From the NCBI GenBank assembly GCA_031316235.1, contig JALDRA010000001.1:3270001-3302000 (forward strand): a stretch of 32,000 bases of DNA, given 5' to 3'. Position numbers and translations under genes: made by a program. The DNA is from Candidatus Scalindua sp. GTDB lineage: Bacteria > Planctomycetota > Brocadiia > Brocadiales > Scalinduaceae. This document shows, one piece after another, positions 16,651 through 20,028 of the stretch (positions within the stretch are counted from its first letter, which is position 1; the number at the start of each line of letters is the position of its first letter). The notes under the pieces were generated by a model. It made no database searches and was not told the DNA's origin. It saw nothing but the letters and a program-made list of their open reading frames with translations.

Positions 16651-19600
16651 ATGAAGACCAGTGCGGAAAAATCATCTACAACGACCTCAGCAACGACAAC
16701 GCATGCTGCGGGCCGTCCTTTTTTCCCAAAGACGGGAGAAGGCGGTTTTTTCACACCGCAGAGATCAACCGTTGCCCCATTCGTCCAAATGAAAATGGCG
16801 GTCAATAAGCCGGGGGATAAGCTTGAGCAGGAAGCGGATAAGATGGCAGGTAAGGTGATGCGGATGCCCTCCCCTGCATTAGGTGAGAAAAAACTCCCGG
16901 GACAAACTGACGAAAAGTTACAGAAAAAAGAAAAGGAAAAAGAAGAAAAAATACAAAGAGCAGCTATTCCCGAAGAAAAGGCCCCAAAAAAAGAAGAAGA
17001 AAAGATTCAGAAAACTCCGGAGAAAGATGAAAAACTCCAGCGCAAAGGTGGCGATGGCACGCCTGCTATCGGATCTAATACCCAATCTGCTATTCAAAAC
17101 AAGACCACTGGCGGCCAGCCGCTTTCCAGCGATGTTCGCAGTTACATGGAGCCTCGATTTAATGCAGATTTCAGCAGTGTGCGCATCCATAGCGATGCTG
17201 AATCCGGCGGTTTGAGCAATCAACTGAGCGCCCGGGCCTTTACCTACCAGAACCATATCTTCTTTTCCCGTGATCAGTACCAGCCCGGCACCAGCGAGGG
17301 CAAACAACTCCTGGCACATGAACTTACCCACACCATTCAGCAGGGTCATGCGGTACAACGTAGCCTGCAAGTAACCACCACGGTGACTCCGCCGCTGATA
17401 CAGCGCCTTGGGATACGGGATGCTCTGGATTATTTCGCTGATAAAGCCAATTTGATTCCTGGCTTCCGGATGCTAACCCTCCTTTTGGGTTTCAATCCGA
17501 TCAACATGCGCTCCACGGTCCGCAGCGCCGCAAACCTGTTGCGGGCCTTGATCGAATTGATTCCCGGTGGCGCCTTCATTGCACAGGCACTGGACAACCA
17601 CGGAGTCATCAATAAAGCCGCAGATTGGGTTGAGAAAAAGCTGGCAATATTTGGCGACATTGGCAGCGAAATCGTCAGTGGCTTGAAACGTTTCATGGAT
17701 TCACTCAGCTGGAGCGACATCTTTGATCTTGGCGGCGTGTGGGATCGTGCCAGGAGCATCTTTACCGCACCAATAGCCCGGCTGATTGCCTTTGGCGGAT
17801 CAGTAGTTGTCGAAATACTCAAGATGGTCAAGGACGTCATACTTAAACCACTAGCTGCGCTGGCACAAGGGACCAGGGGTTACGACCTTCTTAAAGCCAT
17901 TCTTGGTGAAGACCCGATAACCGGCGAATCTGTCCCGCGTAATGCCGACACCCTCATCGGGGGCTTTATGAAACTCATCGGCCAGGAAGAGGTATGGGAA
18001 AACATCAAAAAGGGCAAAGCCGTTGCCCGCGCATGGGCATGGTTCCAGGGCGCACTGGCAGGCCTTATGGGTTTTGTGCGTGCAATTCCCGGTAAGATTG
18101 TAGCTATACTCAGTTCTCTGATATTCCAGGACATCATTACTGTTGCGGGAGCATTCGGTAAAATTGTGAGCGCCTTTGCTAACATCGCAGGTGAATTTAT
18201 CAGTTGGGGACTCAATCAGATCATCAGTCTGCTTGAGATACTCTTCACCGTCGTGGCTCCCGGTATTATGCCTTACATCAGGAAAGCTCAGGCGGCGTTC
18301 ATAACCATCCTTAAGAACCCTATAGGATTTGTTGGAAACCTGGTGCGGGCCGGGAAGATGGGTTTCGAAATGTTTGCAGGCAATATCCTGGAACACCTGA
18401 AAACAGCTTTGATCAAGTGGCTCGTCGGACCGTTAGCAGAAGCCGGAGTGTATATTCCCAAGTCATTCGATTTGATTGAAATTGTCAAACTGGTGCTGTC
18501 GGTTCTCGGTTTGACCTGGCAGAACATCCGAAGCAAACTGGTGAAAATCATTCCCGAACCTGTGCTTGTCGGATTGGAAAAAACCGCAGGCATTCTGGTT
18601 ACCCTTGTGAAGGATGGCCCGGCAGCAGCCTGGGAACAGATCAAAGCCGAACTGAGAGAATTAAAGGACCAACTGATTGCTCAGATTACACAAATGGTCA
18701 CAACCGAGGTGGTAAAAGCAGCCATTATGAAGCTGGTGAGCATGTTGAACCCGGCCGGTGCGGTCATTCAAGCCATTATCGCCATTTACAATACTATTAC
18801 TTTCTTTATCCAGAAAATCCAACAAATCGCTGCCGTAGTCGCGTCTTTTATAGATTCAATCTCCGCCATTGCATCCGGCCAAGTCGCCAATGCCGCTAAG
18901 AAGGTGGAGCAGACCATGGCCAATACGCTCACGGTGGTTATAGCGTTTCTGGCCAAGTTCGCGGGGTTGGGGGGTATCCCGGATAAGATCGTAGGGATAG
19001 TCAAGAAGATACGGCAACCTATCGACAAGGGGTTGGATATGATTGTGGCGTGGTTAGGGAATATGTTGAAGAATCTCATTTCAGCAGTGAAGGGGGCTGC
19101 GGGATCGCTGTTTCAGTGGTGGAAGAAAAAAATACCCATCGATGCTGGAGGCGAGAAGCACAGCCTTTATTTTCAAGGCGAGGAAGACTCGGCGGAACTC
19201 ATGGTGGCCAGTAACCCAAGACGGCTGGAGAATTTTGTAACCGAAGCCCGGGCAAATCCTGAAATAACCGGGAACCCTAAGAAAAAGGTAGCATTGGACA
19301 AGATCGCAGCCGAAATACCTGTTCTTCGCAAAATACGCGATGACTTGCGTCCTCTTAAGGATGCTCTGGAGGATAAGCGTAAACCTTATCTGGACAAGCT
19401 CGATAAAAGCTTTGAAAAAATCGGAACCGAACTTGGGGTGATACTCGCGGATTCCAAGAGCGGCACGCAAACAACTCCAATACCCATACCCTGGCCCAAA
19501 CCGGCCTATACAGGTTATCCAAAGCTATCTCTATATAACCAGGGATTGCCGGACAAACCCAAGTGGAAGTTGTCAGCCAAAAAGGAAACTGCTACACTGA

Positions 19601-20028
19601 TTGCTACCTACAATCCCGATGGCGGCCACAACATCAGCGCAGGACCACCAGCCGCCCCGTCGGAACTCAAAAGCCTGGGAATCAAACCCCCGTACCAGAT
19701 AAAAGCGGATATGGTTATAGGGCCATTAACCGAAGTGAGTACGCCAGGTGGCGGCACTATTAACAGCTTGCTCGAACGTTATGGATGGGATGCAGCCGGT
19801 GAATATATGGACGGAGATCATGTGGTTGAGATTCAATTTGGAGGCAAGGATGTGCAGCAGAACCTTTGGCCTCTTGATGCGAGTTTGAACCGTGGTGCGG
19901 GATCGAAACTTTCCAAGAAACAAGTTGATCTGGATGGACAACAAGTCACCGTCGATTGGCTTAAGAAAGTGAAAAAGAAACCGGGTGAGGAAACCAAGAA
20001 GTATTTCTTCAAGGTGACCGGGATATAA
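16651..20028 (+). CDS. DUF4157 (eCIS-associated, HExxH) protein with a long helical core and a C-terminal HNH-type nuclease motif; candidate payload
   Basis: NKPGDKLEQEADKMAGKVMRMP leader motif and a K/E-rich region. The DUF4157 core is SSDVRSYMEPRFNADFSSVRIHSD...AFTYQNHIFF...LLAHELTHTIQQG (HELTH at 17317-17331). About 550 aa are hydrophobic/amphipathic helices. The C-terminal DGDHVVEIQFGGKDVQQNLWPLDASLNR (19810-19893) aligns to the canonical HNH pattern D-H-hh-x4-GG-x5-NL-x2-L-x4-N. Confidence 0.8.
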   Translation: MKTSAEKSSTTTSATTTHAAGRPFFPKTGEGGFFTPQRSTVAPFVQMKMAVNKPGDKLEQEADKMAGKVMRMPSPALGEKKLPGQTDEKLQKKEKEKEEKIQRAAIPEEKAPKKEEEKIQKTPEKDEKLQRKGGDGTPAIGSNTQSAIQNKTTGGQPLSSDVRSYMEPRFNADFSSVRIHSDAESGGLSNQLSARAFTYQNHIFFSRDQYQPGTSEGKQLLAHELTHTIQQGHAVQRSLQVTTTVTPPLIQRLGIRDALDYFADKANLIPGFRMLTLLLGFNPINMRSTVRSAANLLRALIELIPGGAFIAQALDNHGVINKAADWVEKKLAIFGDIGSEIVSGLKRFMDSLSWSDIFDLGGVWDRARSIFTAPIARLIAFGGSVVVEILKMVKDVILKPLAALAQGTRGYDLLKAILGEDPITGESVPRNADTLIGGFMKLIGQEEVWENIKKGKAVARAWAWFQGALAGLMGFVRAIPGKIVAILSSLIFQDIITVAGAFGKIVSAFANIAGEFISWGLNQIISLLEILFTVVAPGIMPYIRKAQAAFITILKNPIGFVGNLVRAGKMGFEMFAGNILEHLKTALIKWLVGPLAEAGVYIPKSFDLIEIVKLVLSVLGLTWQNIRSKLVKIIPEPVLVGLEKTAGILVTLVKDGPAAAWEQIKAELRELKDQLIAQITQMVTTEVVKAAIMKLVSMLNPAGAVIQAIIAIYNTITFFIQKIQQIAAVVASFIDSISAIASGQVANAAKKVEQTMANTLTVVIAFLAKFAGLGGIPDKIVGIVKKIRQPIDKGLDMIVAWLGNMLKNLISAVKGAAGSLFQWWKKKIPIDAGGEKHSLYFQGEEDSAELMVASNPRRLENFVTEARANPEITGNPKKKVALDKIAAEIPVLRKIRDDLRPLKDALEDKRKPYLDKLDKSFEKIGTELGVILADSKSGTQTTPIPIPWPKPAYTGYPKLSLYNQGLPDKPKWKLSAKKETATLIATYNPDGGHNISAGPPAAPSELKSLGIKPPYQIKADMVIGPLTEVSTPGGGTINSLLERYGWDAAGEYMDGDHVVEIQFGGKDVQQNLWPLDASLNRGAGSKLSKKQVDLDGQQVTVDWLKKVKKKPGEETKKYFFKVTGI

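Follow-up and report, generated by a model that had tools for sequence, protein, structure and literature searches.

Tme (BN159_7576) is a CIS effector of Streptomyces davawensis that consists of an N-terminal DUF4157 domain, hydrophobic helices remotely homologous to phage tape measure proteins, and a C-terminal His-Me nuclease with an H-N-N motif (Nagakubo et al., Nat Commun 2024; PMC11126660). The catalytic His of Tme has been confirmed by mutation and DNase assay, mutation of this nuclease residue alone abolishes toxicity, and Tme co-purifies with spike and tube-initiator proteins (PMC11126660). A DUF4157 domain, a long 'linker', and a C-terminal toxin make up the typical layout of toxins of extracellular contractile injection systems (eCIS), which are phage-tail-like injection machines (Geller et al., 2021; PMC8213781). 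DUF4157-type eCIS-associated toxins (EATs) are encoded in or beside eCIS operons, and many of them have no identifiable immunity gene (PMC8213781; Danov et al., 2024, PMC11297309). Cgo1 and Cgo2 of AlgoCIS are DUF4157 cargo proteins of the tube lumen; without both, particles still assemble, with empty tubes, and Cgo1 does not depend on the DUF4157 HExxH motif for its toxicity (Xu et al., 2022; PMC8894135). The disordered N-terminal domain of Cgo1 and Cgo2 is needed for loading (PROCIS preprint, 2026). In this study, we compared a DUF4157 gene of Candidatus Scalindua, an anammox bacterium, with these systems. The gene likely encodes a polymorphic eCIS cargo toxin, in which a carrier (residues 1-808) is joined to an exchangeable cassette (residues 809-1125) with a His-Me (HNH-like) nuclease.

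The window, i.e., the whole stretch of 32,000 nucleotides analysed, carries an ATG-started ORF at 16651..20028 (+ strand). Its 1125-aa product is 100% identical to the NCBI entry 'MAG: DUF4157 domain-containing protein [Candidatus Scalindua sp.]' and contains zero cysteine residues. The eCIS association proposed in a preliminary description of this DNA was confirmed, as the gene is located inside an eCIS operon. It is flanked directly upstream by an Afp14-type CIS tape measure gene (15151..16629, + strand; Pfam PF19268, E=7.6e-124) and followed by an Afp15-type AAA+ ATPase gene (20620..21945, + strand; Pfam PF00004, E=2.1e-29). The genes around it include Tube, CIS_tube, VgrG, PAAR, gp25, Baseplate_J, CIS_TMP, and AAA; the baseplate and fibre genes and the separate Afp14 tape measure gene all precede the toxin gene. 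Two ORFs at the locus, of 1313 and 1132 aa, are longer. The TMP-toxin-(slot)-AAA gene order was found again in other phyla. By analogy with Alg15, the Afp15-type ATPase probably acts in cargo loading or assembly. Transposase fragments and mobile-element genes are located downstream of the toxin gene. Nothing relevant was found in the literature on anammox eCIS.

The architecture had been regarded as uncharacterised. This view does not hold, because Tme has the same three-part design (PMC11126660) and the EAT layout was described by Geller et al. in 2021 (PMC8213781). The likeness to Tme was drawn from the published description and the domain layout, and the two proteins differ in several respects. 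Tme is a 2247-aa protein with approximately 70% disorder, whereas the Scalindua protein has 1125 aa and is mostly ordered. The gene of Tme, longer than every other ORF of its cluster, occupies the tape measure position directly upstream of the baseplate genes, whereas the Scalindua gene is placed after a separate Afp14 tape measure gene and before the ATPase gene. Tme's C-terminal domain is EndA-like with a DRGH motif; that of the Scalindua protein has DGDH, an invariant H-N-N, and Pfam PF13930 scores of 14.0 bits (full protein) and 17.1 bits (domain alone) against a gathering threshold of 27.

Like the DUF4157-type EATs, the Scalindua protein has DUF4157 near the N-terminus, a long middle region, and a C-terminal toxin part. 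In line with the EAT criteria, PF13699 with HExxH stands ahead of the effector part and the gene is in an eCIS operon. However, its C-terminal domain is not among the toxin domains annotated for EATs (PMC8213781, PMC11297309). With Cgo1 and Cgo2 of AlgoCIS, the Scalindua protein shares a layout in which DUF4157 stands between a disordered N-terminal domain and a variable C-terminal domain, and Cgo2 (1228 aa) is close in size. Cgo1 and Cgo2 were placed in the lumen by experiment, whereas the Scalindua protein would be placed there by analogy. Echinicola, of the same family as Algoriphagus, has a locus with tandem DUF4157 genes encoding proteins of 457 and 1114 aa. The 1114-aa protein shows 53% identity to residues 20-802 of the Scalindua protein. 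A search seeded with the Echinicola homologue returned no Algoriphagus protein among the best 120 matches.

The N-terminal region (residues 1-140; 16651..17070, + strand) is K/E-rich and predicted to be disordered except for one conserved helix. Residues 1-53 and 76-139 have AF2 pLDDT values below 50. The conserved helix covers residues 54-73, PGDKLEQEADKMAGKVMRMP, with at least 90% conservation in 120 homologues, and was modelled at residues 57-71. By analogy with the N-terminal domains of Cgo1 and Cgo2, this region is a candidate loading signal. The DUF4157 domain (residues 157-233; 17119..17349, + strand) matches Pfam PF13699, named eCIS_core and formerly DUF4157, with E=1.2e-29, and has an AF2 pLDDT of 80-89. 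Its zincin-like HELTH (HExxH) motif at residues 223-227 (17317-17331) is intact, as had been reported, and H223, E224, L225, and H227 are invariant in the 120 homologues.

The rest of the carrier is an all-helical hydrophobic core (residues 241-808; 17371..19074, + strand). The long stretch of hydrophobic helices anticipated at approximately residues 245-810 is borne out by the AF2 model, all-helical over residues ~255-821, and by the mean Kyte-Doolittle hydropathy, +0.60 for these residues versus -0.6 to -1.15 for the remaining protein. A handful of hydrophobic stretches was detected at a threshold of 1.6 (19-residue window). Of the PHROG tape measure families, phrog_1272 and phrog_305 are matched by the protein; the E-value is 1.4e-5 when the whole protein is searched and 2.4e-6 when the search is confined to the core. 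About half of 30 diverse members scanned also match PHROG tape measure families (phrog_1272 in 13/30 and phrog_58 in 13/30; best E=7.5e-12). These matches suggest a kinship between the core and phage tape measure proteins, although part of the likeness could be shared helical and hydrophobic composition. Such a relationship is consistent with a lumen-filling or membrane-active role. In the Pfam scan, no family spans the core; the sole pre-toxin match, PT-TG, is sub-threshold and falls inside the core at residues 410-458. The EAT papers describe the middle region as a 'very long linker' (PMC8213781, PMC11297309). However, median identity over 41 loci is 69% for the core, 66% for the AAA ATPase, and 38% for Afp14. 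Judged by its sequence, the core equals the AAA ATPase in conservation and is a discrete tape-measure-like module rather than a linker. Thousands of proteins, distributed over more than 12 phyla, contain the region of residues 1-~810. Among the cultivable bacteria with members of this protein family are Spirosoma, Chitinophaga, Dyella, and Methylovulum.

Polymorphic toxins, as set out by Zhang, Aravind and co-workers, reportedly have a conserved N-terminal trafficking region, unrelated swappable C-terminal toxin domains, and a cognate immunity gene directly downstream of the toxin. A conserved N-terminal carrier with unrelated exchangeable C-terminal cassettes is present here, in agreement with the polymorphic-toxin-like design put forward earlier. 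When the window was compared by blastn with a second Scalindua genome, L006, positions 15176-19073 were 97.4% identical, no similarity was detected over 19074-20042, and similarity resumed at 20043-22084 with 91.8% identity. The tail cassette (19074..20042, + strand), comprising codons ~809-1125 and 14 nt past the stop codon, is thus wholly replaced between two closely related Scalindua genomes, with breakpoints at codon ~808 and shortly after the stop codon. At the protein level, approximately 100 of the 120 homologues align solely to residues 1-~815, with the break at ~805-816. The tails of the homologues fall into at least 25 clusters and include Ntox15, Endonuclea_NS_2, GH-E-like, and APOBEC-like deaminase domains, among others. 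The exchange of tails as cassettes between near-identical genomes is a signature of an effector under diversifying selection.

The cassette starts with a junction, or 'pre-toxin', module (residues 809-945; 19075..19485, + strand), in which a beta element, QWWKKK...GEKHSLYFQGEEDSAELMVASNP, is followed by two long helices. AF2 places strands at residues 827-852 and helices at 859-932, with a pLDDT of 70-92; GEKHSLYF begins at residue 834. The earlier term 'pre-toxin-like' is justified in part. The motif W.WK..K...H.L.F.G....LMVAS.P is conserved and common to several tail types with different toxins, but the segment matched no curated pre-toxin family.

The C-terminal toxin domain (residues 946-1125; 19486..20025, + strand) has a beta-rich N-terminal half followed by a His-Me finger half. 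It belongs to an uncurated family of 985 clusters at 50% identity, nearly always in the C-terminal position. The predicted beta-beta-alpha-metal core, DGDHVVEIQFGGKDVQQNLWPLDASLNRGAG (19810..19902, + strand), is supported by invariant columns, AF2 positions, and hhalign register. DGDHVVE begins at residue 1054, and H1057 corresponds to 19819-19821. G1045, D1056, H1057, Q1062, G1065, N1071, W1073, L1075, and N1080 are invariant in 47 diverse relatives of this domain, whose mean column identity is 19%. The H-N-N motif recognised in the preliminary description was thereby upheld, and, judged from the alignment, the D-H...N...N pattern is far from chance. The AF2 model of residues 931-1125 has a pLDDT of 91.6 and a pTM of 0.85. 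In this model, H1057 is at the end of beta-1, N1071 is directly before beta-2, and N1080 is in the next helix (strands 123-127 and 142-146, helix 147-159, and H127, N141, and N150, numbered from residue 931). This is the His-Me topology, in which the His ends beta-1, an Asn precedes beta-2, and the metal-binding Asn is in the helix, and the expected beta-beta-alpha fold around the three residues was predicted. H1057 is therefore a candidate general base and N1080 a candidate metal ligand, with N1071 as the structural Asn of the predicted core. 'Stand-alone' copies of the domain (P0121-P0126) were considered as free-standing toxins; they are probably gene fragments, because for P0121, at least, the start lies 78 nt from the end of a contig.

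PF13930 (Endonuclea_NS_2, EndA-EssD type) and PF01844 (HNH) share the register (D/R)GH-hh-x-hGG-x5-NLxP-x4-N and the beta-beta-alpha topology with the Scalindua domain, and sister tails of the protein family carry true PF13930 domains. By hhalign, the motif is in register with RGH...NL.P....N of Endonuclea_NS_2-type tails (E=0.015, probability 2.9%, 31 columns). Sub-threshold matches to PF13930 and PF01844 recur, those to PF13930 in 6 of the 47 relatives. The domain differs from the two families by its sub-threshold scores, the lack of Cys/zinc knuckles, a likeness confined to ~31 columns, and an extra family-specific beta-rich N-terminal half. This half keeps the motifs WPKPAY and TPGGG and has no recognisable relatives in the PDB fold search. 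Among the best 50 matches of the BFVD fold search, 28 are named HNH or homing endonucleases, and the best of these has a probability of 0.90 and 2.5 A over 49 columns. The best PDB fold matches in Foldseek are Cas8-HNH domains and the Gme HNH nickase. A fold search of the C-terminus, as had been recommended, thus gave HNH nucleases as the best matches, but none was significant (best E=0.1 in BFVD and 0.5 in PDB), and the enrichment of HNH names is suggestive only. No statistically significant match to curated nuclease families was obtained with this domain by sequence or structure, and its profile retrieved nothing relevant from PDB sequences. With the whole 1125-aa protein, no match was found in NCBIfam and nothing relevant in a PDB sequence search; the AF2 model of the full length has low confidence (pTM 0.30), and the Foldseek search with it gave only noise, mostly helical membrane proteins (E >= 0.3). 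The C-terminus looks like a His-Me/HNH nuclease in its sequence signature and predicted beta-beta-alpha topology, which suggest a DNA-cutting enzyme.

The slot downstream of the toxin gene is occupied here by a lineage-specific 178-aa membrane protein with two predicted N-terminal transmembrane helices (20057..20593, + strand), in the position occupied by immunity genes at other loci. This ORF was rejected as the cognate immunity gene: it is 82-90% identical in anammox loci with other tails (L006 and L035), is absent from the query-type-tail loci L003/L007, L004, and L008, and also has two predicted transmembrane helices. After the query-type tail, the slot is empty in L004 and L008 and contains unrelated ORFs of 88-92 aa in L003. 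Ntox15 tails are followed by a Tdi1-type immunity gene, with an ORF of 180-192 aa in the slot at 6/6 Ntox15 loci. No linked cognate immunity gene for the query tail type was found across the loci compared. The missing linked immunity gene is unusual for an antibacterial nuclease.

The relationship of the core to tape measure families also fits a protein that is mainly a structural or assembly part, e.g., an additional tape measure or a plug of the lumen that touches the spike, with the variable C-terminus as an accessory. The conservation of the core, like that of the AAA ATPase and far above that of Afp14, the position of the gene within the structural block from Afp14 to Afp15, and the co-purification of Tme with spike and tube-initiator proteins agree with such a role. 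Nevertheless, we consider it improbable. A dedicated CIS_TMP (Afp14) gene is located directly upstream, the C-termini belong to bona fide toxin families for which matching immunity genes exist, the cassettes are swapped between near-identical genomes, and AlgoCIS assembles, with empty tubes, when Cgo1 and Cgo2 are missing (PMC8894135).

It is likewise unlikely that the C-terminal domain is no nuclease, its HNH-like fold being reused for binding or for another enzyme, and that toxicity, if any, arises from the HExxH domain or from membrane damage by the core. The invariant residues are exactly those that His-Me catalysis needs, at the right secondary-structure positions, and recognised nucleases occupy the same position in sister proteins; against these points stand the sub-threshold scores of every nuclease-family match, the beta-rich half without recognisable relatives, and a tail without a linked immunity gene. 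The invariance of HExxH could argue for a role of that motif in toxicity, but Cgo1 is toxic independently of HExxH (PMC8894135), and loss of the nuclease His alone abolishes the toxicity of Tme (PMC11126660). A decaying or orphan remnant without current function, in a horizontally acquired eCIS island, would fit the transposase fragments and mobile-element genes downstream. This explanation is very hard to reconcile with an intact ORF of 1125 codons, full-length orthologues of 66-90% identity, invariant catalytic and core residues, and an entirely intact operon.

For the favoured polymorphic cargo toxin, the following mechanism can be proposed. The carrier would comprise the disordered N-terminal loading region, the DUF4157 zincin-like domain, and a 570-residue tape-measure-related core, and the cassette would join the junction module to a His-Me finger (HNH-like) nuclease domain free of cysteine. 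As in AlgoCIS, the N-terminal region may steer the protein into the tube lumen, aided by the neighbouring AAA+ ATPase. The tape-measure-like core would lie along the lumen and be expelled upon contraction; its insertion into the target membrane after expulsion is speculative. The C-terminal domain would then cut target nucleic acid, with H1057 acting as the general base and N1080 holding the metal, as the motif and the predicted fold suggest. We infer in this way both the loading into particles and the nuclease activity. A further reading, which we regard as doubtful though conceivable, takes the core as a universal delivery chassis, under constraint no weaker than that on the loading ATPase across more than 12 phyla, that fills the lumen, inserts in the target membrane, and passes any ~320-residue cassette, whether nuclease, deaminase, or another type, into the cytoplasm. 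Nuclease cassettes without an immunity gene, like the one described here, would then be tolerated because the toxin is unfolded or masked until delivery, perhaps being released by the DUF4157 HExxH motif.

Because the design is already known, the gene is a well-documented further example and not a new kind of system. What is new here is the spread and conservation of residues 1-~810, the tape-measure-like core, the exchangeable ~320-residue tail, its replacement at the DNA level, and the uncurated tail family. For annotation, the core and the predicted His-Me nuclease tail (985 clusters) are two widespread modules without a curated family. The two Scalindua genomes provide a well-resolved case of natural cassette exchange in an eCIS cargo with exact breakpoints, which is useful for engineering programmable eCIS cargo, because a natural fusion point is defined. 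In many DUF4157 toxins, the so-called linker is a strongly conserved tape-measure-like module.

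The gene for the candidate cargo toxin is an open reading frame (ORF) of 1125 codons with an ATG start (window 16651-20028, + strand). Its product is 100% identical to the NCBI entry 'MAG: DUF4157 domain-containing protein [Candidatus Scalindua sp.]', and the host contig is 4.15 Mb in length. Residues 157-233 match PF13699 (eCIS_core, formerly DUF4157) in Pfam with E=1.2e-29, the HELTH motif occupies residues 223-227, and the H1057 codon lies at 19819-19821; the coordinates and features in the preliminary description were all correct, and its observation on this protein is confirmed. 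The gene sits within a complete-looking eCIS operon, in which two gp19-type tube genes, CIS_tube, VgrG, PAAR, and gp25 are followed by a Baseplate_J protein of 1313 aa, two large proteins without annotation, and CIS_TMP (Afp14; 15151-16629) directly before the target. A 178-aa ORF and an AAA+ ATPase (20620-21945) follow. The order TMP-toxin-(slot)-AAA, in which the slot is the toxin-ATPase gap, recurs in Brocadia, Nitrospira, Methylicorpusculum, and Desulfobacterota contigs. Neither a sheath gene nor a terminator gene was seen within the 32,000-nt window; hence, both are presumably located upstream of it. Directly 5' of the two tube genes lies a 177-aa coiled-coil-like ORF (105-638, + strand) with weak syntaxin and SMC matches.

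More than 2545 relatives of the target were found in a large protein collection. For about 100 of the best 120, the alignment was confined to query residues 1 to ~805-816, beyond which at least 25 unrelated tail clusters were distinguished. Among the tail types are Ntox15 (PF15604), Endonuclea_NS_2 (PF13930), HNH nucleases of GH-E-like type, and APOBEC-like deaminases; many clusters carry no annotation. A scan of species-representative genomes gave 84 loci in Planctomycetota, Gamma-, Beta-, and Alphaproteobacteria, Bacteroidota, Chlorobiota, Cyanobacteria, Deinococcota, Gemmatimonadota, Acidobacteriota, Chloroflexota, Actinomycetota, Myxococcota, and Verrucomicrobiota, and in all but a few of them the match to the query stops between residues ~800 and ~950. 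The cleanest evidence for tail exchange is the comparison with a second Scalindua MAG (L006), whose DNA is 97.4% identical over 15176-19073 (to codon 808), has no similarity over 19074-20042, and regains similarity, at 91.8% identity, over 20043-22084. Given this break and resumption, the last ~317 codons are a precisely replaced cassette, which is polymorphic-toxin behaviour.

A profile built on residues 931-1125 and related sequences was searched against 1.84 billion representatives (E<=0.001) and delimited a C-terminal domain family of 985 clusters at 50% identity. The domain takes the extreme C-terminal position in nearly all of the 150 best matches, in carrier proteins of 112-1954 aa. Seven carriers were scanned with Pfam; the four longest contain DUF4157 and the other three (681, 953, and 1261 aa) gave no match. 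Across 47 divergent members, with a mean column identity of 19%, G1045, D1056, H1057, Q1062, G1065, N1071, W1073, L1075, and N1080 are invariant. The AF2 model (pLDDT 91.6, pTM 0.85) places H1057 at a strand end, N1071 directly in front of the following strand, and N1080 within the helix after that, so that the beta-beta-alpha-metal fold proposed around these residues is indeed predicted.

No single match of this domain to known nucleases was significant by Pfam, PDB, BFVD, or hhalign comparison. The Pfam matches to Endonuclea_NS_2 and HNH were all sub-threshold, and the PDB sequence search returned no match. Among PDB folds, the best matches were to Cas8-HNH, in its HNH domains (E=0.5; 51 columns at 3 A), and to the Gme HNH nickase. 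Of the 50 highest BFVD matches, 28 bear HNH or homing-endonuclease names, the best with a probability of 0.90 and E=0.1 (2.5 A over 49 columns). When compared with the true PF13930 tails of sister proteins by hhalign, exactly the 31-column motif was aligned in register (E=0.015). The (D/R)GH...N-h-x-P-x4-N-x-G pattern is that of the Serratia/EndA DRGH nucleases, whose His acts as general base and whose last Asn coordinates Mg2+. Convergence of this weak evidence, together with residue invariance, makes a nuclease the well-supported, not proven, prediction for the domain.

Residues ~255-821 are predicted by AF2 to be all-helical, several helices being 40-46 residues long. This core is moderately hydrophobic, with a handful of stretches reaching a Kyte-Doolittle mean of 1.6 (19-residue window), and no Pfam model covers it. 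In PHROGs, the query core matches two families named 'tail length tape measure protein', one with E=2.4e-6 and the other with 3.6e-5. Of 30 divergent members, phrog_58 is matched by 13 (best E=7.5e-12), phrog_1272 by 13, phrog_1535 by 9, and phrog_305 by 8, all of them tape measure families. Over 41 loci, median identity to the query is 69% for the core, 66% for the AAA ATPase, 38% for Afp14, 80% for DUF4157, and 51% for the N-terminal region. In three Pseudanabaena loci (L026, L027, and L030), the core is 78-79% identical to that of the window, whereas the AAA ATPase is 46%, Afp14 27%, and DUF4157 56% identical. Such discordant conservation in cyanobacterial loci points to transfer of the module between lineages or to extreme constraint. 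From its very strong conservation over the loci compared, the core is a functional module rather than a linker. A sub-threshold match to PT-TG, the Pfam pre-toxin domain, lies within the conserved core (17878-18024, residues 410-458; 21 bits, cut-off 23.5) and recurs in 4 of 30 family members.

Residues 1-53 and 76-139 have pLDDT <50 in the AF2 model, and a confident helix (57-71) lies inside a segment with conservation of 90% or more. For loading into the AlgoCIS tube lumen, the DUF4157 cargo proteins Cgo1 and Cgo2 need their disordered N-terminal domain and can dispense with DUF4157; an AAA+ protein is implicated in the process (PMC8894135; PROCIS preprint 2026). By analogy, the N-terminal region of the target is a candidate loading signal.

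A Nitrospira locus with an Ntox15 tail has a GAD-like/Tdi1_C protein, the known immunity type for Ntox15, in the slot. All six Ntox15 loci examined have a slot ORF of 180-192 aa, and deaminase loci have slot ORFs of 129-135 aa. For the query-type tail, no consistent slot partner was found among the loci compared: L004 and L008 have no slot ORF, and the slot of L003 holds an unrelated ORF of 88-92 aa. The 178-aa protein in the target's slot (20057-20593, + strand) carries two predicted transmembrane helices in its N-terminal part, a C-terminus that is charged and helical, and no match in Pfam, NCBIfam, or PHROG. It was rejected as the target's immunity protein, being common to anammox loci with other tails; it is 82-90% identical across Scalindua and Brocadia eCIS loci whatever the toxin type, and a single Methylococcales locus has it at 52% identity. 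It is probably a lineage-specific accessory protein, possibly acting in assembly or as a holin-like release factor.

Similarity of the sister Scalindua genome to the window stops at about 22084. A truncated IS110-family transposase fragment of 146 aa (23333-23773, + strand) lies 3' of the eCIS operon, and near it are two small ORFs of the four-helix-bundle '23S rRNA intervening sequence protein' type (22554-22913 and 24301-24666, both +). Further on, a 742-aa ORF (29516-31744, + strand) joins an N-terminal DruA-like (Druantia)/Mom-like domain to a DDE_5 transposase domain, an unusual fusion. In two Brocadia loci (L001 and L005), a MazE-type antitoxin gene is paired with a 143-aa ORF 3' of the AAA gene, the latter with a weak PIN match in L001 only. 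Both also have downstream ankyrin-repeat proteins, a type reported elsewhere as eCIS-associated toxins.

Tme, the Streptomyces davawensis CIS effector characterised in 2024, combines DUF4157 with tape-measure-like hydrophobic segments and an EndA-like nuclease at the C-terminus; the His2051Ala change abolished its toxicity, and the isolated nuclease domain is a Mg2+-dependent DNase and RNase (PMC11126660). The target has the same three-part design and would work like Tme. However, its gene comes after a distinct Afp14 gene and larger ORFs are present in the cluster, both contrary to Tme synteny, and its nuclease-like domain falls below the EndA family threshold. It is therefore filed under the known DUF4157 polymorphic eCIS effectors. 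The earlier interpretation is largely supported by operon context, cassette exchange, and the predicted beta-beta-alpha fold, but the architecture, then thought uncharacterised, had been described in Tme (PMC11126660), and a layout in which a long linker separates DUF4157 from a C-terminal toxin had been described as common among eCIS toxins (Geller et al., 2021; PMC8213781). Echinicola arenosa (L043) has tandem DUF4157 genes (2995-4368, 457 aa; 4401-7745, 1114 aa) that mirror cgo1/cgo2, and Echinicola and the AlgoCIS host belong to the same bacterial family. The 1114-aa protein shares 53% identity with query residues 20-802 and has an apparently deaminase-like tail, a hint that Cgo2, which has been studied experimentally, may be a member of the target's family. 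Two modules of the target, the tape-measure-like core and the His-Me nuclease-like tail, have no curated family; the most useful new facts are where exactly the cassette is bounded and how strongly the core is conserved.
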